IMG/VR virus record: IMGVR_UViG_3300023235_001725
Strand: one strand, 5' to 3'
Length of the DNA: 64,000 nucleotides
Origin: a virus
Lineage: Duplodnaviria > Caudoviricetes
Shown here: positions 8,674 to 52,595 of the stretch, piece after piece
Layout: the number at the start of each line of letters is the position of its first letter
Position numbering within the stretch: the first letter of the stretch is position 1
Position numbers and translations under genes: made by a program
Notes under the pieces: generated by a model
What the model saw: the letters and a program-made list of their open reading frames with translations, nothing else
Databases searched by the model: none
Told to the model about the DNA's origin: nothing

Positions 8674-9298
8674 GACATTAACTTTGGGACCTCTTTCAAA
8701 TTTTGTGCCTGGGAGGTCAAGTTCTTGGGGTCAAGCAATCCGTTTACACAGAAATCAAGCGGGTTCTTCTGTTGCCTTTACTGTATCAGCTAATAGACGG
8801 AATACTTGGTATAACTGTTTTGATTCCTCTCAGATTCCAGAAGGCGCCACCATAGACGGCGTAGAATTAGTTTTAACGGGAAGCACGTCATCTAATGCGA
8901 TTGGGACAGCTGGCTCCACTGGAGCCAATGAAGAGGCAACTTATAATATTCGCCTGTATAATGGAACAGCATACTCAAACATACTTTACACAAACACTTT
9001 TGTTGGTGGGAACGATTACTACGGCGGCACACTCGGAGGCCCCAACGACTTGTCTGGCTTATCTTGGGCAGATGGTGACCAGGCAGATTTTGGATTTGAC
9101 ATAGAAGTCTCTTCTGTTGTGGGAACACCAATTGCAATTGCAAGTCGTGGTTGTGCATTGAAAGTTTATTATACCGATAGTCAAGAAATAGCTCCAATAT
9201 CTGGTATTCAATCTAAAAGCCAAAGAACTCTGAGTCAAATTCAATCAATAAATGGTGTTTCTACAGCTCTTATTAGGTCAATAAATCAGAGGGGTTGA
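8666..9298 (+). CDS. Hypothetical virion-associated protein
   Basis: Likely start MAETLTLG; beta-rich; C-terminal IQSINGVSTALIRSIN tail motif. Confidence 0.65.
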   Translation: MAETLTLGPLSNFVPGRSSSWGQAIRLHRNQAGSSVAFTVSANRRNTWYNCFDSSQIPEGATIDGVELVLTGSTSSNAIGTAGSTGANEEATYNIRLYNGTAYSNILYTNTFVGGNDYYGGTLGGPNDLSGLSWADGDQADFGFDIEVSSVVGTPIAIASRGCALKVYYTDSQEIAPISGIQSKSQRTLSQIQSINGVSTALIRSINQRG

Positions 9299-9301
9299 TA
9301 C

Positions 9302-9469
9302 TTATAAAATCTTAACGAATTCTCTTTTGCCAACTTTGACAACCTGACCCGACTCTACTGGGCCGTTTTCAGTTACCGCACCTCCTTCCACCTGAACACC
9401 TCCTTCTGAAATCAATCTTCTTGCTGCTGAGTTGCTACAATCTCTGACTGCAACTACAGCTTGAATCAA
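9302..9469 (-). CDS. Small S4-like RNA-binding domain ORF (possibly frameshifted remnant)
   Basis: LIQAVVAVRDCSNSAARRLISEGGVQVEGG...VVKVGKREFVKIL resembles the TyrRS C-terminal S4 domain; only a TTG start; not in ORF track. Confidence 0.55.
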   Translation of the reverse strand: MIQAVVAVRDCSNSAARRLISEGGVQVEGGAVTENGPVESGQVVKVGKREFVKIL

Positions 9470-9659
9470 GTCTTTTGCTTCAATATTTTTAATAACAGCT
9501 GGGATTTCTTTCTTCTGAACCTGGTTCTATGACTTTAAAATCACTTACTGACTGTAGGTCAACCTTTCCTTTTCTACTCACAAGTTTTTAATTTACTATA
9601 AATAGACTACAAAAGTAACAAAGATTTCATAACTGTTACTTTTGTTTATGAAATCAAAG

Positions 9660-9750
9660 TGGAAGCGGAGGGGCTCGAACCCCCATTGTTTACCCAAAGG
9701 GACTAGATTTACAGTCTAGTGCGACACAACCGATAGTCGACCTCACTTCC
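9660..9750 (-). tRNA. tRNA-Tyr(GTA)
   Basis: Acceptor GGAAGTG/CGCTTCC, anticodon arm CTAGA-CTGTAAA-TCTAG, long variable arm, T-loop TTCGAGC. Confidence 0.9.
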
Positions 9751-9814
9751 ATAATAGTCATTTTTCACAACCCCTATTGAGGTTACTTCCGAAGAAAGTG
9801 GCATGACTGCCATG

Positions 9815-9904
9815 TGAGAGTGGAGGGACTCGAACCCCCAACGTTTACCCAGAGGGACCAGGGTTACAACCTGGCACAACACAACCGATAGTTGCCTCAC
9901 TCCC
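9815..9904 (-). tRNA. tRNA-Tyr(GTA)
   Basis: CCAGG-TTGTAAC-CCTGG anticodon arm, long variable arm, T-loop TTCGAGT. Confidence 0.88.
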
Positions 9905-10008
9905 ATTTAAAAATTGATTCCTCACCAACCAAGGACCAGCATGTCGCGAACAACTGGGCAGAGTAGAGGCCTTCTCTCTGCAACGGATTCGAACCGTTTT
10001 GGAATTTG

Positions 10009-10083
10009 TGGAGATGATGGGACTCGAACCCACATACGACGCTACGTGCAAGGCAGCCGCTCAGCCAATTGAGCTACATCCCC
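10009..10083 (-). tRNA. tRNA-Ala(TGC)
   Basis: GGGGATG acceptor with G3:U70, loop CTTGCAC. Confidence 0.9.
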
Positions 10084-10176
10084 ATTAGCAGGACATGTTC
10101 CCCAACGGCTTAACCTGATGAGGGGAATACCCACCAGACGCTCGTCGCATATCCTGTTTTCTTTAATCTTTTATTG

Positions 10177-10251
10177 TGGAGAAGATGGGAATTGAACCCA
10201 CGGTCTTCTGTCTGCCAGACAGATGCATTAGCCAGCACATGCTTCAACCCC
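10177..10251 (-). tRNA. tRNA-Ala(GGC)
   Basis: G3:U70, TCTGT-CTGGCAG-ACAGA; two acceptor-stem mismatches. Confidence 0.8.
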
Positions 10252-10260
10252 ATAAACAAT

Positions 10261-10372
10261 CAATCTCAGGGCGTCATCCCCAAGCCTTTAATGCGACGCT
10301 CAATGCGCCTACATCTCAGTGAGTCCTTTTTCGCTGACGAAGCGACTCGGCTACCTAAGGCACCTAAGATTG
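10261..10372 (-). ncRNA. Unassigned structured RNA between tRNAs
   Basis: 10-bp closing stem CAATCTTAGG/CCTGAGATTG around a GC-richer interior; no credible ORF. Confidence 0.4.
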
Positions 10373-10375
10373 AAT

Positions 10376-10451
10376 TGGCGGTGTGCATGGGAGTCGAACC
10401 CACAATCTCATCCGTGACAGGGACAAATGTTACCATCAACACCTCCACACC
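10376..10451 (-). tRNA. tRNA-Asp(GTC), CCA encoded
   Basis: GGTGTGG acceptor, G73, loop CTGTCAC. Confidence 0.88.
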
Positions 10452-10498
10452 GTGTCGTTTTTTTGTTTATTAAGGTCATAAGCGTAAATGACCAAGGG

Positions 10499-10572
10499 CG
10501 GTAGCGAAGGAATTCGAATCCTCAATCTCCTCCGTGACAGGGAGGCAACATGCGCCAATATGATGCGCCACC
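10499..10572 (-). tRNA. tRNA-Asp(GTC)
   Basis: GGTGGCG/CGCTACC, CTCC-CTGTCAC-GGAG; near-identical to 10808-10881. Confidence 0.88.
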
Positions 10573-10579
10573 ATTTTTT

Positions 10580-10642
10580 CAGGTAATTCTAAGAAGAGTG
10601 ATTTTATGTTCCTATAACGAAGTAACTCTTCTTTCAACACTG
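10580..10642 (-). ncRNA. Y-RNA-like small RNA
   Basis: CAG-TGTTGA-AAGAAGAGT-TACTTC...ACTCTTCTT-AGAATTAC-CTG; same architecture as 60697-60760 upstream of Ro60; degenerate half copies at 10669-10760. Confidence 0.6.
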
Positions 10643-10807
10643 AAAATTTTTAAATATGGTGGGGAGGGCAGGTCTTAATCTGCAATTATAGTTTATGATA
10701 CTAATTTTCGAAGTAACTCTTTCTATCAACACTGTTGCCAGGTAAAAAGCGAAAAAGTATTAATTATTCCTCCCCATAATAAATTGTGGTACTTTAATGC
10801 ACCAAAG

Positions 10808-10881
10808 CGGTGACGAAGGAATTCGAATCCTCAATCTCCTCCGTGACAGGGAGGCAACATGCGCCAATATGATGCGCCACC
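10808..10881 (-). tRNA. tRNA-Asp(GTC)
   Basis: GGTGGCG/CGTCACC, G73, loop CTGTCAC. Confidence 0.88.
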
Positions 10882-11034
10882 ATTTTCCCAAGATATTATG
10901 ACGATTACATCGGTGTAATATCTTGGGTTTTTTAATTAACTTTATTATCAATATGTCAAAGAACTCTTATTGTTTTCAAAAACTCCTACTCGTGTGGACA
11001 TTTACTAGAAACTCTTGTAAACTAACACTTTGTG

Positions 11035-11108
11035 TCGGGAGAGAGGGATTTGAACCCTCGACCTGAGCATCCCAAATGCCCCGTGCTACCTGACTGCACT
11101 TCCTCCCG
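11035..11108 (-). tRNA. tRNA-Pro(TGG)
   Basis: CGGGAGG acceptor, GGGCA-TTTGGGA-TGCTC, T-loop TTCAAAT. Confidence 0.9.
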
Positions 11109-11150
11109 ATATTAATATTTCAATTAATCTTCTGGCTCCGTTGAGTCCAG

Positions 11151-11200
11151 AAACAAAAAAAACCCCCAGGTCATTCGTTTGATTGAATGACCTGGGGGTT
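11151..11200 (-). terminator. Attenuator terminator upstream of Pro/Asp/Ala/Tyr tRNA cluster
   Basis: 16-bp perfect stem AACCCCCAGGTCATTC/GAATGACCTGGGGGTT plus U-tract; competing copy GAATGACCTGG at 11252-11262. Confidence 0.85.
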
Positions 11201-11225
11201 TTCCCTAATGGTTTATGTCTCTACA

Positions 11226-11351
11226 TCAACTGTTGTTCAGTTTAGACATAACCAGGTCATTCTGCTTGCTCCCGCTATAATCGGGCGCACAGCCAGTCGC
11301 TGCCATCGGCATCGGTTGGTTTGAAATCGCTATGTCTGTAAAGTTGAACAT
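11226..11351 (-). promoter_or_regulatory. Leader peptide (41 aa) of tRNA-cluster attenuator 1
   Basis: MFNFTDIAISNQPMPMAATGCAPDYSGSKQNDLVMSKLNNS*; GCG CCC GAT TAT (A-P-D-Y) about 13 nt before the antiterminator. Confidence 0.75.
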
Positions 11352-11573
11352 TGAATGTGTTTTGTTTTTTAAAAGTGCTTCTCAAAAGAGTTGCTCTTGG
11401 TAATAAATACGAGGCAAAAATAGAAAGGTTACTTAGAACTCACAAGTTTTTTCTCGTTTATTTTCAATTTATTATGTAATTCAATGATAGTTAGCATTTT
11501 AAAAGTAAAAGTTTTTTTCAAAAAAATATGTCTTTGGTAAAAAGTGCTTCATTTTAGGGGTAAAGTAAACTGT

Positions 11574-11987
11574 TTATTCGGAGATTTTCCTAAGCTGTCT
11601 CTTGAACCACGAGCGCTTTTTGTCTGGTATTGTCTCTGGATATGCAAGTTCTTCTAGTGATTTGTGTGGATTAAATAAGCGAACTCCTTTATATAAAAAG
11701 GACTCCATCATCTCATGCTTAACGATTTGCTCGAAAGCAAGCCACGCTGTCATCACTAAGCCTTTTTCGCTAGTATCTAGTGGAGCTGTGTAGTCTCGGC
11801 CAAAGCCAGTGCCCATTTCCCCAGTTAAAGTGTCTGGTCTCCAGAATCTACATCTCAGCAAGAATATGTCGTCTGTCTTCTGTATCTCGAACTGAGGTTT
11901 TCCTGTTTCGTGCATTTGGATTCCAGATGGTGCGAAACTAATCTGGTTCAGGATGTTTTGAGCTTCTTCTTGAGTGTAGTTTTCCAT
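11574..11987 (-). CDS. Hypothetical phage protein
   Basis: 137-aa ORF, CGTATAT motif upstream. Confidence 0.75.
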   Translation of the reverse strand: MENYTQEEAQNILNQISFAPSGIQMHETGKPQFEIQKTDDIFLLRCRFWRPDTLTGEMGTGFGRDYTAPLDTSEKGLVMTAWLAFEQIVKHEMMESFLYKGVRLFNPHKSLEELAYPETIPDKKRSWFKRQLRKISE

Positions 11988-12019
11988 GCTTAAATATACG
12001 TAGGATTATAAATAAGGTT

Positions 12020-23010: not shown

Positions 23011-23212
23011 TTTTCTATTTTTTATTCTTACTCGTTTGGCTTTTCAGTTTTCGCCCCGTTTTTAAAATGGTTGCTGGTCTCCACTTTTTTATTTTTTATC
23101 AAAACTGTTCTTCAAGATTATTCAAAATATTTTTTCAATTCTCTTTTCAGTCTACGATGTCGTTTCTTAAACTTGCCCATAATATACGTGCATGAACGGT
23201 AAAGGTTTCGAT

Positions 23213-34216: not shown

Positions 34217-34249
34217 CAAAAAAAGCCCTAAGATTTCTCCTAGGGCTTT
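34217..34249 (-). terminator. Attenuator terminator upstream of Ser/Arg/Trp tRNA cluster
   Basis: AAAGCCCTAGGA-GAAA-TCTTAGGGCTTT plus U-tract; competing CCTAGGGC at 34295-34302. Confidence 0.85.
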
Positions 34250-34274
34250 CCTTGATATCGTTTATGAATTCACA

Positions 34275-34358
34275 TTAACGCATAACTCGGTCAGGCCCTA
34301 GGTTTTTCCTAGAACTCCATCTTGATGACGACCAATTTATGTTTGGGAGTGTTTTCAT
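34275..34358 (-). promoter_or_regulatory. Leader peptide (27 aa) of tRNA-cluster attenuator 2
   Basis: MKTLPNINWSSSRWSSRKNLGPDRVMR*; TGG TCG TCA TCA AGA TGG AGT TCT AGG at 34308-34334. Confidence 0.82.
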
Positions 34359-34461
34359 TGTTTTTGTTCTTTACCTTCAAGTTTTATTTCTCAGGGACGA
34401 GAAGGAATTAGTTGTCAATATATAGTTGGGAAAAATATTTTCTCGTTCTATAATTGAGACG

Positions 34462-34469
34462 CAAAGATA
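34462..34469 (-). promoter_or_regulatory. Bacteroidota-type -7 promoter element TATCTTTG
   Basis: Matches TAnnTTTG; similar elements at 32545-32552 and 56057-56064. Confidence 0.65.
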
Positions 34470-34560
34470 TACAATAAGTTGCATCTATTCCAAGTTTTTA
34501 TGTAAATATTTAAAAATTATTTTACAATTTACTGATTTTTAGTGTATTGTGAAATAGTAG

Positions 34561-36704
34561 TAAATTATTCCTTTACAGGATGAGGTGATAAACAGGGGTA
34601 TGATGTCAAACCAAGAAGTGCAAAATGTTGTGATTCCCTTACAGGATGAGATGATAAACAGGGGAGGGAGCAACTTCAAATACCTACAAGCTGTTGTGAT
34701 TCCCTTGCAGAATGAGATGATAAACAGGTCTAACGATGGAATAACCACCTTAGGCGAAGTTGTGATTCCCTTGCAGAATGAGATGATAAACAGGTTTAAA
34801 AGTTGAATGCGCCCCGTGCATCCCGTTGTGATTCCCTTGCAGAATGAGATGATAAACAGGTGAGCATTATTCTCTAAACAAAATTTATCTCGAATAAATT
34901 TCAGCCTATTTCAGATTAAACAACAACAATGGAAAATGAAATCGACCGTCTAAATTATCTTTTAACAGCTGTAAACACAGAGAACACATTGAAAGGGCTT
35001 GCACTTGCTGAAATCACCAAAATCTGCTGTCAAAAGTCAAAGAATTTCAGAGATATAAAGCAAATCGAAGACATCCTTCTTAAACTAAAAAATAATCAGC
35101 AGAAATTCCGTTTTAAACAGGAGATAAAATATTTCAAACAGATGGCAGGTAGTTGTGATTCCCTTGCAGAATGAGATGATAAACAGGCGGATTACGATTA
35201 GCCACAGCACCCAACAGTTGTGATTCCCTTGCAGAATGAGATGATAAACAGGCACAGCCAAATAAAGAATTACCAAGATGGTGTTGTGATTCCCTTGCAG
35301 AATGAGATGATAAACAGGTACCAAAACAGAAACATATTTGCTTGCCATGTTGTGATTCCCTTGCAGAATGAGATGATAAACAGGAGGGAATTGATACATC
35401 AGAAAGCCTTTATGTTGTGATTCCCTTGCAGAATGAGATGATAAACAGGGGCAATCGCCTTGAATAATTTTGCTGTTCAGTTGTGATTCCCTTGCAGAAT
35501 GAGATGATAAACAGGAGACTATAATGAATACCGATTTGAGGAAGAGTTGTGATTCCCTTGCAGAATGAGATGATAAACAAGGCAAAGGTCGGGAGCTTGC
35601 AAGCAGATATAGTTGTGATTCCCTTGCAGAATGAGATGATAAACAGGACAAAGGATAAGAAGGGCGTGTAGCTATTAGTTGTGATTCCCTTGCAGAATGA
35701 GATGATAAACAGGCAAAGCAACATCGAATGGAAGCAAGAGAGTAGTTGTGATTCCCTTGCAGAATGAGATGATAAACAGGTTCACCTTCGTTTCGAGGTG
35801 GTTTTTGTCTGTTGTGATTCCCTTGCAGAATGAGATGATAAACAGGGAAGCTTTTGGAACTAATTCCGCTAATCGAGTTGTGATTCCCTTGCAGAATGAG
35901 ATGATAAACAGGGGAATCGAATTCCTTTAGTACGTTCCTTTTGTTGTGATTCCCTTGCAGAATGAGATGATAAACAGGTAGATTAAATCTTAGTCTTCAA
36001 GACCAATCGTTGTGATTCCCTTGCAGAATGAGATGATAAACAGGGACGGTATGCATTCAAAATATCATTGCGCTGTTGTGATTCCCTTGCAGAATGAGAT
36101 GATAAACAGGTAGATTAAATCTTAGTCTTCAAGACCAATCGTTGTGATTCCCTTGCAGAATGAGATGATAAACAGGGACGGTATGCATTCAAAATATCAT
36201 TACGCTGTTGTGATTCCCTTGCAGAATGAGATGATAAACAGGCTACTTCAACTTGACCCAAAAAGACATACAGTTGTGATTCCCTTGCAGAATGAGATGA
36301 TAAACAGGTGCAGTCCAATTCATGATAAACGCATTAAAGTTGTGATTCCCTTGCAGAATGAGATGATAAACAGGTCAATTTCATGTTGGGTGCTGTGACT
36401 AAAGGTTGTGATTCCCTTGCAGAATGAGATGATAAACAGGTTTATTTAAACAATGCAAAAAACAAACCAAGTTGTGATTCCCTTGCAGAATGAGATGATA
36501 AACAGGTGGACCACTCAACCCAAATAACCCGCGCATGTTGTGATTCCCTTGCAGAATGAGATGATAAACAGGTGCACAAAGCTTTAATTATCAAAGGTTC
36601 ACGTTGTGATTCCCTTGCAGAATGAGATGATAAACAGGTGTTTGAAGTTGGCGAACTTGATTCTAAGAGTTGTGATTCCCTTGCAGAATGAGATGATAAA
36701 CAGG
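34561..36704. CRISPR. CRISPR array, 29 repeats of 36 bp, spacers 29-31 bp
   Basis: Repeat GTTGTGATTCCCTTGCAGAATGAGATGATAAACAGG; two leftmost repeats degenerate; one 291-bp interruption (34861-35151); 27 normal spacers; probably transcribed on minus strand with the cas operon. Confidence 0.98.
34929..35174 (+). CDS. Small ORF inside the CRISPR-array insertion
   Basis: MENEIDRLNYLLTAV...; A-rich leader; stop lies inside the next repeat, so the native 3' end is probably lost. Confidence 0.45.
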   Translation: MENEIDRLNYLLTAVNTENTLKGLALAEITKICCQKSKNFRDIKQIEDILLKLKNNQQKFRFKQEIKYFKQMAGSCDSLAE

Positions 36705-36790
36705 GTACCTGTGGCTAATGCGCTAATAAACAAGCAACAACCACATGTACTGGATGGAAAAAAGACGTCAAAGAGCGCTTGCACAAGGAG

Positions 36791-37507
36791 TCAGATGTAG
36801 AGTTTTGAGTTTGTAATCTCCATAACCATTCCAAACCCTATTCCTGTAGATTGTCCCAAACCATAGTCGTGAATAGCTTGAGCAATCTTTTTGTTGCAAT
36901 GTACAACAACGCTGCATACATTTGCTTTGTTCACACTGGTTTTACTTGGGGCTCCAGAAGAACTCATCAAAATATCTCTAACCTTATTGTGGTTTGATTT
37001 CTGAACTTCAATTCTAAAGCCGTCAAATTTTAAAGTGTTGTCAATGTTTGACAAACGTCTTTTTGTTTGTTCAGACAACTCCTCTTCAAACCCATCATCA
37101 TTTAGGGTGTGAAATTCATAACGGCCTCCATTTTTTTTCTTTAGCAAAATGCCAGTTTCAGTGGTTTTAAAAACAGTAAAACCATCATACAAGTCTTCTT
37201 GGATGAACTCAATGCCCGTCAGTTTCATTCCAAATCCAAAATCTTTATTTGCTCCTGCTCCTGCGAGAAGTTTATTTAAAAAGCTCTCGTCTCCAGAGGA
37301 TATAAACAAACTGCCTCCATGAGCGTACTCAATGGATGTTCCGCCTTCTGTAATCGTTCCTCCAATCATCCTAGAGATAACATAGTTAGAAGGTTGATTG
37401 TGATAGAGATTATCTTTTCCTAAGCATTTATGAATGTAACTCACAACGTGCTTAAGGTTATTTGGAACCAACTCCTTTGCGGAGCTAAATTTTAACTGTA
37501 TTCTCAT
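36791..37507 (-). CDS. cas6: Cas6 endoribonuclease (I-B/III-like, not Cas6f)
   Basis: C-terminal G-rich loop YGLGQSTGIGFGMV; 238 aa; adjacent to array. Confidence 0.88.
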   Translation of the reverse strand: MRIQLKFSSAKELVPNNLKHVVSYIHKCLGKDNLYHNQPSNYVISRMIGGTITEGGTSIEYAHGGSLFISSGDESFLNKLLAGAGANKDFGFGMKLTGIEFIQEDLYDGFTVFKTTETGILLKKKNGGRYEFHTLNDDGFEEELSEQTKRRLSNIDNTLKFDGFRIEVQKSNHNKVRDILMSSSGAPSKTSVNKANVCSVVVHCNKKIAQAIHDYGLGQSTGIGFGMVMEITNSKLYI

Positions 37508-38385
37508 GACTCTATTGTAAGTTTAGTGGATATATCTCCTACTCTATCATAACCCTCAATGCTTAGCCTGTTTCCCGATACCACTCTTTCAATCCAAACC
37601 AAGCCTCCATCCAATATAGTTGCCACACCAGCTGAGTTTTCAAGGACTTCTTTGTCTTCTTCATCAAGCGGCACAATAAGGGTTCCGCTCAAGCGAATCG
37701 TTTTATCTATGCCATTGGGAACAACCAGCATAAGTCCTTTTGCGATAGAGTCCTTAGCCATCTCCATAGGGTCGTTTTTATCAGTAGGAGTCTTATTTCT
37801 CAGCCAGTTAACGACACCCGTTTTTCCAACTTTACGTTCTCTAAAATGAGAGAGCAAAGCTTGTTTAGAGGCTGAGTTTAAAGATTGCTTAAAAATATCA
37901 GGCACATCTTCTACTGGAACTTTTCTAATATTTGAGTGGCCCGTTGCCTCTATGAGCATTGTGATGAAATCACCATAATGCTCTTTTAGGTAGGCTTCAA
38001 TCAAATCCCAAGTGAGGTTTGTTATTTTGGCGTTTGAGTTCCAAAAAGCTTTCCTTGTGCGGCATATCTCTTTAATTTCTCGAACATCCCCTTTTTTAGT
38101 AACCCAAGTGGGCACTTCAATCTTTAGGAAGCTGTTTTTTGCCTTCTCAATCAATCTATCCTGCTTCTGATAGACACAGGCCCCAAAAAAAGGGACTGGT
38201 CTTTCATTAAAAAGCACGTGCAAGACATTTGAAATCTGATGATGTGTTAAGTAGGACTCAAATTGAGGGAGCCCCTTTCGAATCTCACCTGCGTCTTTAT
38301 TTCCAAGAAACAATTTATCTTTCGTGTCTTTATGGTTACGAAACAAAACTGCATCTTTAAACTTCAAAACCATAAATTCTTTCAT
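37504..38385 (-). CDS. cas5: Cas5fv-like subunit (type I-F2 variant)
   Basis: LTHHQISNVLHVLFNER and LSGTLIVPLD..EVLENSAGVATILDGGLVWI resemble Cas5fv motifs; enlarged at 293 aa. Confidence 0.65.
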   Translation of the reverse strand: MKEFMVLKFKDAVLFRNHKDTKDKLFLGNKDAGEIRKGLPQFESYLTHHQISNVLHVLFNERPVPFFGACVYQKQDRLIEKAKNSFLKIEVPTWVTKKGDVREIKEICRTRKAFWNSNAKITNLTWDLIEAYLKEHYGDFITMLIEATGHSNIRKVPVEDVPDIFKQSLNSASKQALLSHFRERKVGKTGVVNWLRNKTPTDKNDPMEMAKDSIAKGLMLVVPNGIDKTIRLSGTLIVPLDEEDKEVLENSAGVATILDGGLVWIERVVSGNRLSIEGYDRVGDISTKLTIES

Positions 38386-39464
38386 GCTGGGGTGGTTTCG
38401 GTTTTCTTTACTTTCTCTGCTTTTTGCTTTGCGGCTTTGGCTTTCTTTTCCACGCTATTCTTTTTTAAAGTTGCTCGTTCTTCTTCCGCGTACTTCTTTA
38501 ATTCTTCATGAAGTTTTTTTGCATCTCCAGTAACATCTTCCGTATATGCTTCAAACACTTCATACTGCAGAGCTTGAATATTTTCTATTGAATTGATTTC
38601 GACCCAACCCTCTTCGCTGTTAAACCTGTCAATCAAAGGATTGGAAACCAGTTTCACCATCAGCTTCTCTTTGCGTGCATAAGCACTGCTTCGACTGATG
38701 TCCAACGTAAGAAGCTTTTCTAAAAATACAGAAACTAATAAACGAACCTGGTCATCTGTGAATTTGAATCCACGCTCAGCAATGTTTACAGAACTTCCTC
38801 TCATTTGGAAAAATCCAAGCTCATTATCAAATGAGCCAAAGTGAATGTCGGCGTACTTTTTGAATAAATCAAAATGGTCGGGATTAAAACCATAACGTCC
38901 CATGATTTCGTCACAAGAGTAAAACTGAAGCTCTTTCAGGTTTATAGCACCTTGAGATGAATACTTAATCTTCCCAATTGTTTCTTTTTTGTAGATAGAA
39001 TTATCACTTTTTTCTTCGTCTGCTTCATAGCTGATTTTCTCACCAGACTTTGAATGGAATTCGAGACGCGAAAGAGCATCGCACGTTTGTTCGGCAGCTA
39101 CTAGTGTAATGGCTCCTTTTCTTTTTAACGTATCGTTTTTAATGGCATGCAAGTGCCCATTAAGAATGCTTTCTGGATGGGCAAGGTTTGCATAAAGTAA
39201 ATCTTTATTGTGTGTAAGCTTTGGTGTTTGAGACACTTTATCATACATCGCATGCTTCATGCAGGTAGGCGAAATAACTAATTTGTAACGAGGCTCTTTT
39301 CCATCGTTGTAAATGTTTCTCTTTGCATACATTACGTTGCTATGGTATGATTTTAAGAAAGGGAATTTTTCTCCAATATGGAACCGTTGCTCATTGCTAT
39401 CGTAATTAACAACGCCATTGCCTTCAATTTCAATTTTAAAAAGAATTGACTTTACTTTGCTCAT
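38382..39464 (-). CDS. cas7: Cas7fv-like backbone subunit (type I-F2 variant)
   Basis: KSILFKIEIEGNGVVNY, LVISPTCMKH, KETIGKIKYSSQGAINLKELQF and TDDQVRLLV parallel Shewanella Cas7fv motifs as recalled. Confidence 0.8.
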   Translation of the reverse strand: MSKVKSILFKIEIEGNGVVNYDSNEQRFHIGEKFPFLKSYHSNVMYAKRNIYNDGKEPRYKLVISPTCMKHAMYDKVSQTPKLTHNKDLLYANLAHPESILNGHLHAIKNDTLKRKGAITLVAAEQTCDALSRLEFHSKSGEKISYEADEEKSDNSIYKKETIGKIKYSSQGAINLKELQFYSCDEIMGRYGFNPDHFDLFKKYADIHFGSFDNELGFFQMRGSSVNIAERGFKFTDDQVRLLVSVFLEKLLTLDISRSSAYARKEKLMVKLVSNPLIDRFNSEEGWVEINSIENIQALQYEVFEAYTEDVTGDAKKLHEELKKYAEEERATLKKNSVEKKAKAAKQKAEKVKKTETTPA

Positions 39465-39506
39465 GGTAATCTGTTTAAAGGTTAATATGTAATTTCTATG
39501 AATTGT

Positions 39507-41834
39507 TTACTCGTAAATTGGCTGGTCAAACTCTTCCAGTAAAGTTTTTTTAATATATCCGTAAATGTCATGATATTCCATATCCATCCTCGGATACGGC
39601 ATTGATTTGTATTTCGCCATTATACGCAATAATTCAAGATTTGTGCTATGCTTTGGAACTTTTAAAAATCTAGTGTAATCAAAAGCGCAATCTGGCTCAT
39701 CGTTAAGATGTTTAATTATCTTAAATACTTTTGCTAGTGCGTTGGAGTCTTCATGGAAGTCTTCGGGTATAGAATCATAAATAGGAGTTGATTTAGGCTG
39801 TGTCCATTCTTTTTTTGCCCATTTTTTAGCAGTAAAAAAGATTTCATTTCCTTTGCTTCTATAGCTAGTTTCTTGTATTTTATGGACTTCCGAGTTTTCA
39901 CTTTTAATCGTTAACCTATTAGGATAAATTTTCTCATGTAAATCCATGCGGCTTTGTCGATATTTTGTGTTTAACCAGATTCTTCTTAAGGCTTCATTTT
40001 CTTTACAATGTTTATTATACAAAGAATATAGGTTATCTAAAGTTGTTTCCCCTTGACTTTGTGTTAGAAAATTAAACCATAAGTCAGACAGTTCTCGTGA
40101 GTACATTGTTTCGCGGGCTCTATTCTCACTTCGTCCAGAATTATCTGAAGGGATTCGATATGTTAGAATTTCAGACTGGTCATCATAATCTCCCCACCTG
40201 TCGACACGGCCTACTCTTTGAAGAGTAGCTTCTGGAGACAGGCAACTTTCAATCAAATGCCTAAAAGAAACATCTAAAGATGCCTGTGCTATTGGGCTCG
40301 CTATTACGTGTTCTTTTTCAATATTTCTGTCGGATTGCTTTCCATAGTTTTGAAGAATAACGCTTAATCGCGCTTGATTGTCGTCGTCCTCAAATTTTCC
40401 ATGAAACAAAATAGTATCTTCATTGTGTTTGTGCTTATTTCTTTGACACTCAACTATAGAATTAGAGATAAAAAGAACAGGGCTTTTTTTACTTTCAGAT
40501 ATTCTAGAACGCCCCTCTTTTGTAGTGAGTTTGTATGATTTATTGTGGACAGCAGGAGCATGTTCAAATTTTCCAGGCAAATGGGCTGTTGAGTTGTCAA
40601 ATGAATCCCAATAAACTGATAAATCAAGTGGGGTTGCGGACAGCAGTAAAGAGCGTCCGTTTGTCATCTGATGTCTTACCTTCATTAGATTTATAAAACC
40701 AGCCAGTAAAGCCCCGTCCGACACTAGCTCATGATACTCATCAAATACAACATCTGCATCGGATACCATTAATAAATCAATATCGTTACAATGCTCTTTT
40801 GTCGGACGTAAAAAGTTATCTACGTTGGTTACAATGATATCGCTTGAAAACTTTATTCCTAAATCTGAATTTGAGGCCTGTTGTTTTCCAGCGTAATATA
40901 ATTCTACTGAAGTTTCAATTCCTGCATTTTTAAGCTCTCTTAAGATGTTGTGGTACACTGATTGTGCCACAGCATTTCTTGGACACACCCAAATAAGCCG
41001 TTTATTGTTGACAGTGCTCCAAAGTAAACCTAGAAGTGTTTTTCCGTATCCAGCAGGGGCGTTGATTTGAACAGTCTTAAACGAGGTCGTCCTAGATGCT
41101 AAAGCAACTTGTTGTGTCCATCTTTTTTCATGTCCAGGATATGGGCATTTAGTAAAAGCGTAACGGTGTTGTTGAATCAGTCGTTCATTTATAGTTTTTT
41201 TAATTTCATCAACTGTAAAATCTCCTAATTCACTAACTAAGTGGTCAGCTCTTACCACGCACATGCGAATAATCGTGTTGTCAACGTTGAGGTCGCTCGT
41301 CTCGTTAAAATCTCTAATATAGTAATGAGGGCTTGATGTTTCAGCTATTCTTGGCCTATCAAGGACTTGGCCAGGAAATAATTCTTCGACGAATTCAATC
41401 ATTCTATCGATAGAATTATCTTTCTTCTTCCGAACCCACTCAAGAATAGACGCATCTGTGTGCTTGCCCATTACATTGTTAATGCCGTGATGCCAGTATA
41501 CTGCTTCAGCAACTTGTCTTAGCTCCTCTGAGTCAAAGCTGATGTACATTCTTACAAATGCCCATCCCACTTCATTGTGCGAAAAAATAATGTCTTTTTT
41601 CTTTGTTTTAGTGGATTTACCATTTAAAGAGTTTCGGAGTAAAGTTTGAAACTCGGTTTCGGCTTTTCCAATATCATGAAGAAGCGCCGCTTTGCGGATA
41701 ACTGATATAAAATGTTTTTTTTCTGTATCTGAGGTAACTATAACTGAGTCGGCAATATATTCCGCAACCTCAGCAACCTTTCGACTGTGCTCAATCAGGG
41801 TTTCGCCAGTACTTTTTGCTAATAACTCATCCAT
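39507..41834 (-). CDS. cas3: Cas3 HD nuclease-helicase (no Cas2 fusion)
   Basis: EHS...LLHDIGK HD domain, RADH, APAGYGKT, FDEYH, LSAT, QASLDV, QRVGRVDR; 775 aa. Confidence 0.95.
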   Translation of the reverse strand: MDELLAKSTGETLIEHSRKVAEVAEYIADSVIVTSDTEKKHFISVIRKAALLHDIGKAETEFQTLLRNSLNGKSTKTKKKDIIFSHNEVGWAFVRMYISFDSEELRQVAEAVYWHHGINNVMGKHTDASILEWVRKKKDNSIDRMIEFVEELFPGQVLDRPRIAETSSPHYYIRDFNETSDLNVDNTIIRMCVVRADHLVSELGDFTVDEIKKTINERLIQQHRYAFTKCPYPGHEKRWTQQVALASRTTSFKTVQINAPAGYGKTLLGLLWSTVNNKRLIWVCPRNAVAQSVYHNILRELKNAGIETSVELYYAGKQQASNSDLGIKFSSDIIVTNVDNFLRPTKEHCNDIDLLMVSDADVVFDEYHELVSDGALLAGFINLMKVRHQMTNGRSLLLSATPLDLSVYWDSFDNSTAHLPGKFEHAPAVHNKSYKLTTKEGRSRISESKKSPVLFISNSIVECQRNKHKHNEDTILFHGKFEDDDNQARLSVILQNYGKQSDRNIEKEHVIASPIAQASLDVSFRHLIESCLSPEATLQRVGRVDRWGDYDDQSEILTYRIPSDNSGRSENRARETMYSRELSDLWFNFLTQSQGETTLDNLYSLYNKHCKENEALRRIWLNTKYRQSRMDLHEKIYPNRLTIKSENSEVHKIQETSYRSKGNEIFFTAKKWAKKEWTQPKSTPIYDSIPEDFHEDSNALAKVFKIIKHLNDEPDCAFDYTRFLKVPKHSTNLELLRIMAKYKSMPYPRMDMEYHDIYGYIKKTLLEEFDQPIYE

Positions 41835-51212: not shown

Positions 51213-51395
51213 CTACACTTTTGTACGTCTTGGCGGTGGCTTAGATTTTTTGGTTCTGATTTCTTGGAAGTCACACTCTTTGTCGTAAAATTTACTACAA
51301 CATCTTGCGCCTATTCCAAACAATGAGCGTTTAATATTTTCATTGGTACACCAAGCACCTTTGTTATTATATTTACAATTTATCTTTCTTTCCAT
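51213..51395 (-). CDS. Hypothetical Cys-rich cassette protein
   Basis: 60-aa ORF between attC-type sites. Confidence 0.6.
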   Translation of the reverse strand: MERKINCKYNNKGAWCTNENIKRSLFGIGARCCSKFYDKECDFQEIRTKKSKPPPRRTKV

Positions 51396-51460
51396 TTCAA
51401 TATTATTTAATTAATAATCCGCACTACACACAGCACTTTGTATAGTGCATAGTTCGTTCC

Positions 51461-51706
51461 TCACAACGCCACCATACAAGGGGCGTTGCCATTAGAGTTT
51501 AACCAAACATAAGCTGTCGGGTCATACTTTTTTGGCTTTCCTAAATATTGGCTTTTATCGCAAACCTTACACTCTCGTCTAAATCCTTGTTCGTATATCT
51601 GTTTACATTTTTTATCTTTAAATCTAGTCCATTTGCTTATCTCCCAAAAGTGTAAGGAAAAACGGCAACTAACATTGTATAAAAAACATTGCTTAATTCT
51701 ATTCAT
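51461..51706 (-). CDS. Hypothetical cassette protein starting inside an attC-type site
   Basis: MNRIKQCFLYNVSCRF, homologous N-terminus to 49524-49724. Confidence 0.6.
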   Translation of the reverse strand: MNRIKQCFLYNVSCRFSLHFWEISKWTRFKDKKCKQIYEQGFRRECKVCDKSQYLGKPKKYDPTAYVWLNSNGNAPCMVAL

Positions 51707-52451: not shown

Positions 52452-52523
52452 TCTACAAATGTAATCAATTTTACAAATATAAAAACTGTTCGAAGGGCGG
52501 CCTTTTTCTATCTGTAATTCAAG

Positions 52524-52595
52524 AGGGGCGTAGGGGGTTCGAACCCCTGACGTACAGGGTTAAAGCCTGATGTTCTACCTCTGAACTAACGCCCC
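52524..52595 (-). tRNA. Putative ochre suppressor tRNA (anticodon TTA)
   Basis: GGGGCGT/ACGCCCC acceptor, U73, CAGG-CTTTAAC-CCTG with canonical 7-nt loop, T-loop TTCGAAC. Confidence 0.8.

Follow-up and report, generated by a model that had tools for sequence, protein, structure and literature searches.

The window analysed here is the 64,000-nucleotide stretch of the virus record IMGVR_UViG_3300023235_001725, which comes from an uncultured salt-lake phage and whose DNA is present in many salt-lake metagenome runs, with no RNA run among those listed. The element in question, hereafter leader 1, is a short leader between a promoter-like sequence and a cluster of tRNA genes on the minus strand, the strand that carries all genes in this part of the window. 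An earlier reading made from the letters alone (the sequence-only reading) had proposed that leader 1 encodes a peptide whose Ala, Pro, Asp and Tyr codons control the tRNA genes behind it by attenuation. The features of the locus, in the order in which they would be transcribed, are as follows.

11446..11415, minus strand: candidate promoter, a pattern match made up of CTTG (-33 region), 20 nucleotides (nt) and TATTTTTG, with a Bacteroidota-type -7 box TAnnTTTG at 11422..11415
11397..11374, minus strand: small hairpin in the 5′ untranslated region (UTR), predicted in every fold of the growing transcript
11351..11226, minus strand: open reading frame (ORF) of 41 codons, MFNFTDIAISNQPMPMAATGCAPDYSGSKQNDLVMSKLNNS*, with its TGA stop at 11228..11226
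11337..11329, minus strand: region 1 (anti-antiterminator), AGACATAGC, codons 5-8 of the ORF, predicted to pair with GGTTATGTCT of region 2
11315..11268, minus strand: candidate regulatory block, codons 13-28, P M P M A A T G C A P D Y S G S
11262..11244, minus strand: region 2 (5′ strand of the predicted antiterminator), GAATGACCTGG (11262..11252) followed by TTATGTCT
11220..11185, minus strand: region 3, AGACATAA (11220..11213) and the terminator 5′ arm GGAAAACCCCCAGGTCATTC (11204..11185)
11176..11155, minus strand: region 4, the terminator 3′ arm GAATGACCTGGGGG and T8
11151..11131, minus strand: hairpin TCTGGACTCAACGGAGCCAGA of 21 nt, between the terminator and tRNA-Pro
11108..9661, minus strand: tRNA genes proposed to be regulated, Pro(tgg), three of the Asp(gtc) type, Ala(ggc), Ala(tgc) and two Tyr(gta), from ARAGORN and Rfam

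The tRNA cluster begins with tRNA-Pro at 11108. ARAGORN called Pro(tgg), Asp(gtc), Ala(ggc), Ala(tgc) and both copies of Tyr(gta), and two more Asp-like genes, near-identical and of the Asp(GUC) type, were seen only by Rfam (10808-10881 and 10499-10572, minus strand; 35.8 and 35.5 bits), so that the composition given in the sequence-only reading, Pro, Asp x3, Ala x2 and Tyr x2, is correct. By eye, the acceptor/D region of the two Rfam-only genes appears noncanonical. No TAnnTTTG box was found on the minus strand from 11155 to 9661, in a consensus scan that phage-specific promoters could escape. Between tRNA-Pro and the first Asp tRNA there is also a 12-bp hairpin (about 10888-10935, CCCAAGATATTA...TAATATCTTGGG), which has a T run only on the plus strand and hence looks terminator-like for the opposite strand.

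The 41-codon frame that the sequence-only reading had described is present, with both of its codon runs, CCG ATG CCG ATG GCA GCG and GCG CCC GAT TAT, and it has been called as a gene in three metagenome assemblies. The 20 nt upstream of its ATG are 65% A, which places it at the 98.5th percentile among all ATGs, and the same is true of the start of a second leader in the window (leader 2, treated below), with 0.65 A and again the 98.5th percentile. Such starts appear to be the rule for this phage: only 2 of the 46 long ORFs in the window are preceded by a tetramer resembling a Shine-Dalgarno (SD) sequence, and the 20 nt upstream of the long ORFs have an A content of 0.46, against 0.34 for all ATGs. 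Leader 1 thus has its start in the same A-rich, SD-less context as the genes of the phage, and would be translated from it. Starts of this kind and the TAnnTTTG box are typical of Bacteroidota, and expression of the Bacteroidota type fits a TonB-dependent receptor gene in the window and a faint Por_Secre_tail match in one of its relatives (L006, below). The peptide itself carries no Pfam signal or recognisable feature, and a database search with it returned near-identical copies only. Within the ORF lies a predicted hairpin (11293..11264, minus strand) with GAUUAUAG in its loop, into which the GAU UAU codons fall.

Upstream, the candidate promoter would place the start of transcription near 11408, followed by the small 5′ hairpin and an A-rich stretch that leads into the ORF. 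A sigma-70 consensus scan gave nothing useful in the leader 1 region, and the Bacteroidota-type box shows no statistical enrichment across the window; the support for this promoter comes from conservation, not counts. The block GTAACCTTTCTATTTTTGCCTCGTATTTA is nearly invariant in relatives of the window, even in the one (L009) whose subsequent 5′ UTR diverges.

The core of leader 1 is a set of pairings that compete for the same strands. The terminator (11204..11157) has 20 counted pairs, an 8-nt loop and a T8 run ending at 11155, 46 nt before tRNA-Pro, and is by far the strongest in a 4-kb scan. The 11-mer GAATGACCTGG with which its 3′ arm begins (11176..11166) occurs a second time inside the ORF (11262..11252) and has no further exact copy on the minus strand across the 64 kb; when up to one mismatch is allowed, 5 matches are present in the window where 0.83 would be expected by chance, and no shuffle gave as many. 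The sequence-only reading had recognised this copy as an 11-nt antiterminator able to pair with the 5′ arm of the terminator. That pairing stands, with the copy placed within the ORF and not behind it, 14 nt past the TAT codon, and the pairing extends further than was claimed, to 19 pairs (11 + 8), GAAUGACCUGG with CCAGGUCAUUC and UUAUGUCU with AGACAUAA. A transcript that lacks the 3′ arm is predicted to fold into this 19-bp antiterminator (-45.6 kcal/mol, z = -5.6). The full leader is predicted to fold into the terminator together with a further helix, AGACAUAGC (codons 5-8) with GGUUAUGUCU, at -80.2 kcal/mol and a z-score of -7.4 against shuffles. In the minimum-energy folds of both the full and the growing transcript, this 1:2 helix closes a junction that holds two hairpins. 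Region 1 is a near-repeat of AGACATAA in region 3 (11220..11213), and it and the promoter are additions to what the sequence-only reading contained. Two complementary strands are thus each contested by a pair of direct repeats; regions 1 and 3 form one pair, regions 2 and 4 the other. In folds of the growing transcript, 1:2 is predicted first, gives way to 2:3 when the 5′ arm has been made, and returns, together with 3:4, when the 3′ arm has been added. As modelled, this is the defining logic of a classical attenuator, with the full set of 1:2, 2:3 and 3:4 pairings, and the TGA stop is placed between regions 2 and 3. A permissive Rfam scan of 9000..12000 found no leader, T-box or riboswitch family at E <= 1, and identity with a T-box riboswitch was rejected on that basis; an NsiR1 match on the terminator hairpin (25.4 bits against a cut-off of 39) was read as chance.

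Relatives were reached through the protein database. Homologues of the 137-aa protein encoded upstream of the leader (70-73% identity) gave L002 and L006, and a search with the leader peptide gave L009 and L010, and L006 a second time. In an alignment of these four sequences with the window, from the promoter to the first tRNA, the unit is kept throughout, with a mean column identity of 85%, which exceeds the identity of the flanking 137-aa protein. What is kept includes the promoter block, the start context, the ATG and the TGA, regions 1 to 4 and the hairpin behind the terminator. All helices are 92-97% paired in the five sequences and the 1:2 helix is 95% paired; the antiterminator is 100% paired, with one G.U in L002; and the 10 pairs of the hairpin inside the ORF are all invariant. 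In the 5′-UTR hairpin an A.A mismatch is replaced in L010 by a C-G pair, as read from the alignment. L009 (225-285) has a 5-nt deletion in the terminator 3′ arm, which gives it a shorter and weaker stem while the antiterminator copy stays intact, and its switch may be a natural variant that leaks more.

The reading frame of leader 1 is kept in all five lineages. Both indels within the ORF are of 3 nt, one additional Ala codon in L010 and one codon fewer in L002, and leave the frame intact. About 12 codon columns have nonsynonymous substitutions against about 3 with synonymous ones, and the remaining third positions are invariant. In the otherwise invariant block of the hairpin inside the ORF, only two nucleotides vary, position 2 of codon 21 and position 1 of codon 28, and these oppose each other as a 1x1 internal loop in the predicted fold. 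Such a pattern fits a leader rather than a functional protein, since selection on the frame, on certain codons and on RNA pairings would be expected to produce it.

Behind the leader, the clusters of the relatives are not all alike. In L002 (4016-5910) and L009 (1998-3513), the cluster continues with Gly(tcc), Gly(gcc) and two tRNAs with CAU anticodons. The cluster of L002 runs on into a low-molecular-weight phosphatase-like gene and an RtcB RNA ligase, a pair with a flavour of tRNA repair, and that of L009 has a bidirectional terminator after its last tRNA. The first tRNA differs as well, with 75 nt in the window, 83 nt in L002 and 95-97 nt, including a long insertion, in L006, L009 and L010; the TCTGGACTCAACGGAGCCAGA hairpin is identical in all five sequences though the tRNA behind it varies in this way, and may be a processing signal. 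Further homologues of the 137-aa protein (L011-L015) had no comparable tRNA cluster, or their sequence ends too early. No megablast or blastn match to the region or to leader 1 was found among the cultured phages of INPHARED, IMG/VR yielded no sequence related to the neighbouring protein or to the terminator, and conserved 21-25-mers found nothing in metagenome contigs and genome contigs. The single IMG/VR match to the pattern GCGCCCGATTATAGCGGG, L008, is an unrelated GC-rich contig without tRNAs.

How well the codons of the leader match the tRNAs behind it was scored as the best stretch of 4-20 codons, against simulated random leaders with the codon usage of the phage. The sequence-only reading had held that the codons name exactly the four amino acids of the cluster. 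The A-P-D-Y match exists (11288..11277, minus strand), but alone it is marginal: against the Pro, Asp, Ala and Tyr tRNAs of the window, p = 0.08 with strict wobble and p = 0.02 when U34 is allowed four-way reading or the match is scored at the amino-acid level. The occurrence of any permutation of A, P, D and Y anywhere in the leader, which is a post hoc criterion, has p = 0.004. The match improves with the larger tRNA set of the relatives. Against the union set, which includes their Gly and Met tRNAs, leader 1 scores p = 8e-4 to 6e-3, and 11-12 of the 16 codons of the block fit Pro, Asp, Ala, Tyr, Gly or Met. The leader of L009, scored against its own cluster, fits with 13-14 of 16 codons when Met is counted (p = 1e-5 to 8e-5), and without Met p is about 1.2e-3 to 1.5e-3. 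From these comparisons the matched block is a candidate for being longer than A-P-D-Y, at about 16 codons (P-M-P-M-A-A-T-G-x-A-P-D-Y-S-G-x), with Met and Gly codons as well.

The same layout recurs at a second tRNA cluster in the window. The leader 2 unit (34494..34218) has the same promoter type (34494..34462), an ORF of 27 codons (34358..34275) that contains TGG TCG TCA TCA AGA TGG AGT TCT AGG, and regions 1 to 4 in the form of GUUCUAGG, CCUAGGGC, GCCCUAGG and CUUAGGGC with U7, followed by Ser, Arg and Trp tRNAs. All nine codons of this run fit the cluster, a match not equalled by chance in simulation (p < 5e-7), and leader 1 is less densely matched than this. The cross-controls are not significant, with p = 0.63 for leader 1 against Ser/Arg/Trp and p = 0.77 for leader 2 against Pro/Asp/Ala/Tyr/Gly/Met. 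The run is the only 9/9 stretch in the six frames of the 64 kb besides one in a repeat at the start of the window; that repetitive segment (1-130), with 9/9 codons of the Ser/Arg/Trp type, also scores for the Pro/Ala/Gly set and is probably a simple repeat. The two leaders both end in D-x-V-M (GAC Cnn GUU AUG) and are otherwise unrelated in sequence. The sole INPHARED match to leader 2, of 30 nt, was set aside as chance. At the Leu cluster (55.4 kb) and at the suppressor tRNA (52.6 kb) the tRNAs directly follow ORFs, and no third leader was seen there. The suppressor tRNA (52523-52595, minus strand; Rfam 66 bits) has the anticodon UUA and would suppress UAA; leader 2 ends in UAA, and its suppression would let ribosomes run through the terminator region of that leader.

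A comparable unit lies in the Caulobacter phage phiCbK (JX100813). Here an unannotated 32-codon ORF (51341..51502, MSKTYRQFVRQIQVVRNIRAGRSRMADEGFRD), with the stretch Q-F-V-R-Q-I-Q-V-V-R-N-I, holds GGCGGGCC, which repeats the 3′ arm of an annotated terminator behind the ORF, and the terminator is followed by Phe, Val, Ile, Ile, Val, Gln and Gln tRNAs. The same design is thus also present in a cultured phage that is not related to this one. In the same part of the phiCbK genome (47000-52800), three annotated terminators stand directly before tRNA blocks, and gp083, of 45 aa and rich in Ser, Leu, Pro and Lys, also Ala and Thr, precedes a Pro/Lys/Leu/Ser block.

At the locus itself we see the sequence elements of leader 1, pairings between them that exclude one another, and the conservation of the whole as a unit, and from these we infer translation of the leader, the positions of ribosomes on it, conditional read-through and the identity of the signal. 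Leader 1 is probably a transcription attenuator of the ribosome-mediated, leader-peptide kind, placed in control of a phage tRNA operon. This reading is supported by the conservation of the unit, the preserved frame, the start context, the lack of a consensus promoter inside the tRNA cluster, the 9/9 match of the sister leader and the recurrence of the design in phiCbK. The attenuation proposed in the sequence-only reading thus keeps its architecture and its link to the tRNA cluster, and within the window its codon match is moderate; the further link to anticodon nucleases is speculation.

In the proposed mechanism, transcription would start at the conserved promoter and the 41-codon leader would be translated while RNA polymerase advances. 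Region 2 could pair either with region 1 or with region 3, and region 3 either with region 2, as the 19-bp antiterminator, or with region 4, as the terminator with its U8 tract. When the leader is read fast, a ribosome at the TGA would block the antiterminator, the terminator would form and the transcript would end 46 nt before tRNA-Pro. A stall at codons 13-25 or so, which specify Pro, Met, Ala, Gly, Asp and Tyr, would instead separate regions 1 and 2 and leave region 2 free to capture the terminator 5′ arm, and polymerase would enter the tRNA genes. With an assumed ribosome footprint of about 5 codons behind and 3 codons ahead of the A site, the terminating ribosome would cover 11220..11216 of region 3 and lie within the loop that the antiterminator would close. 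A ribosome whose A site is on codons 22-25 would protect the RNA to about 11268 and leave region 2 free, and A-P-D-Y would be the last four codons at which a stall has this effect. The outcome would be negative feedback, with tRNAs made when decoding of their codons is slow and shut off when the supply is adequate.

Several points weigh against this reading. The match to the four tRNA types of the window itself is only marginal, and the Gly and Met tRNAs that improve it are absent from the window's cluster; moreover, one of the two CAU tRNAs of L009 resembles an initiator and the other has a long variable arm. The Pro, Ala and Gly codons of leader 1 are not those that most require the U34 tRNAs of the phage. 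The CCG, CCG and CCC of leader 1 are the rarest Pro codons of the phage (0.3% each), the CCC would require four-way wobble by tRNA-Pro(UGG), and GCG, GGC and GGG are used rather than the A-ending codons best read by U34 tRNAs. The block is also interrupted by Thr, Cys/Phe/Tyr and Ser codons. Rare sensor codons have a precedent in the CUA codons of leuL, and here they may be dictated partly by the GC-rich hairpins. On the side of the RNA, the 20-bp terminator is far more stable at equilibrium than the antiterminator, so that the switch must be kinetic, and the naked-RNA fold at the decision point already favours 2:3, which makes the outcome in the untranslated state uncertain. There are zero compensatory changes in either structure, a count that is uninformative because the five sequences are too alike.

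Other explanations have to be set against the same evidence. The almost frozen synonymous sites could reflect a function of the RNA only. In such a switch the choice between antiterminator and terminator would be made by a protein, a tRNA or a small molecule bound to the leader RNA, with its three-way junction and hairpins, and the ORF would have no part in it. This would also account for the strong fold z-score, the position of the GAU UAU codons in a hairpin loop and the fact that the two variable nucleotides of the otherwise invariant block face each other in an internal loop. Against it stand the preserved ATG, TGA and frame with two 3-nt indels, an A-rich start like that of real genes, the match of the codon block to the L009 cluster, the 9/9 match of the sister leader and, apart from the weak sub-threshold NsiR1 match, the lack of any Rfam family, T-box included, at E <= 1; we consider an RNA-only switch unlikely. 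The reverse possibility, in which the ORF encodes a functional protein of 41 residues and the terminator merely ends its gene, draws on the conservation of the ORF in five lineages and on the gene calls in three assemblies. It would have to accommodate changes that are mostly nonsynonymous while other nucleotides are frozen, the opposite of purifying selection, in a peptide with no Pfam signal or recognisable feature and only near-identical copies in the database, and it is very improbable.

The terminator could, finally, be an ordinary unregulated one, with the tRNAs made from an unrecognised promoter or by constitutive leakage and the 11-nt repeat left over from a duplication. It is very strong and thermodynamically dominant, phage promoters may escape a consensus scan, and the promoter motif is not enriched in the window. 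But an exact competing 11-mer and a second competing repeat (region 1/region 3) have been kept in five lineages, just 46 nt without a TAnnTTTG box separate the terminator from tRNA-Pro, and the layout recurs at a second tRNA cluster, all of which makes this explanation unlikely.

The mechanism as such is known from the thr, ilv, trp, his and leu operons; what would be new is the tRNA target, the SD-less phage setting and a multivalent codon "checklist". In the enterobacterial amino-acid leaders, thrL and the ilvL of ilvGMEDA, which are multivalent, and trpL, hisL, leuL and pheL, as in leader 1 as modelled, a promoter precedes a short leader in which the regulatory codons are clustered; the pairings 1:2, 2:3 and 3:4 exclude one another; the intrinsic terminator ends in a U tract; and the stop codon lies where a terminating ribosome disfavours the antiterminator. 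Leaders of the thrL and ilvL type also sense several amino acids at once, and leuL uses rare sensor codons. Unlike these leaders, leader 1 has tRNAs rather than biosynthetic enzymes as its proposed target, so that the product would feed straight back on the signal; it belongs to an SD-less, Bacteroidota-type phage, has its region 2 inside the ORF and matches no Rfam leader family. In the pheST attenuator and in the proline-codon leaders mgtL and mgtP, of Salmonella mgtA and mgtCBR, the speed of translation at given codons, and with it the supply of charged tRNA, likewise sets the choice of RNA structure, but these control protein-coding genes, which belong to the translation apparatus or to stress responses, and are not wired to the tRNA genes that decode their sensor codons. 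In T-box riboswitches, too, a choice between terminator and antiterminator reports on tRNA status and controls translation-related genes; however, in a T-box the leader RNA itself binds the uncharged tRNA, by means of a specifier codon and the T-box bulge and with no ribosome involved, and none matches here. Leader 2 and the phiCbK unit resemble leader 1 in that the codons of a short ORF tend to match the tRNAs encoded behind it, the ORF contains the terminator 3′ arm in a second copy, and the tRNA block comes immediately after a strong terminator. A full-text literature search, of incomplete coverage, returned no description of attenuators before tRNA genes or of these leaders, and to our knowledge few such attenuators are known in SD-less, Bacteroidota-type systems.

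Why phages carry tRNA genes, and what controls them, is still debated; the proposed reasons include compensation for codon usage, the need to replace host tRNAs that have been degraded, and evasion of anticodon nucleases. If leader 1 works as proposed, this phage measures the decoding speed of specific codons and tops up only those tRNAs that run short. A textbook mechanism so far known for amino-acid biosynthesis and for a few other operons that encode proteins would then apply to RNA genes as well, and such attenuation would work in SD-less, Bacteroidota-type expression systems. It is an evenly balanced proposition that unrelated phage lineages, the Bacteroidota-type phage here and the Caulobacter phiCbK-like phages, regulate each tRNA block by a multivalent leader of its own that "spells" its tRNAs and keeps their supply self-correcting; such leaders would also switch on when host defences, or shut-off induced by the phage, deplete those tRNAs. 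In that event the continuation of the relatives' operon into a phosphatase-like gene and RtcB would connect the sensor with the repair of tRNAs. From such leaders one could predict which tRNAs are regulated together, and they would offer compact sensors of tRNA availability for synthetic biology.

A few observations concern the surroundings of the two leaders. The site after the 137-aa gene is a variable insertion spot: in another relative (L004, 5381-6784; L005, 1241-2644) a Cas12f1-like_TNB gene of the TnpB type directly follows the 137-aa homologue, and other relatives have different genes there. Directly upstream of the leader 2 promoter lies a CRISPR-like repeat array (34540-36800), seen as repeating ORF translations such as VVIPLQNEMINR, beside Cas3 and other cas-like genes (36791-41834). 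Elsewhere in the window, 23021-23089 on the minus strand is a clear Rfam match to the DUF805 RNA motif (78.5 bits against a cut-off of 51.1).

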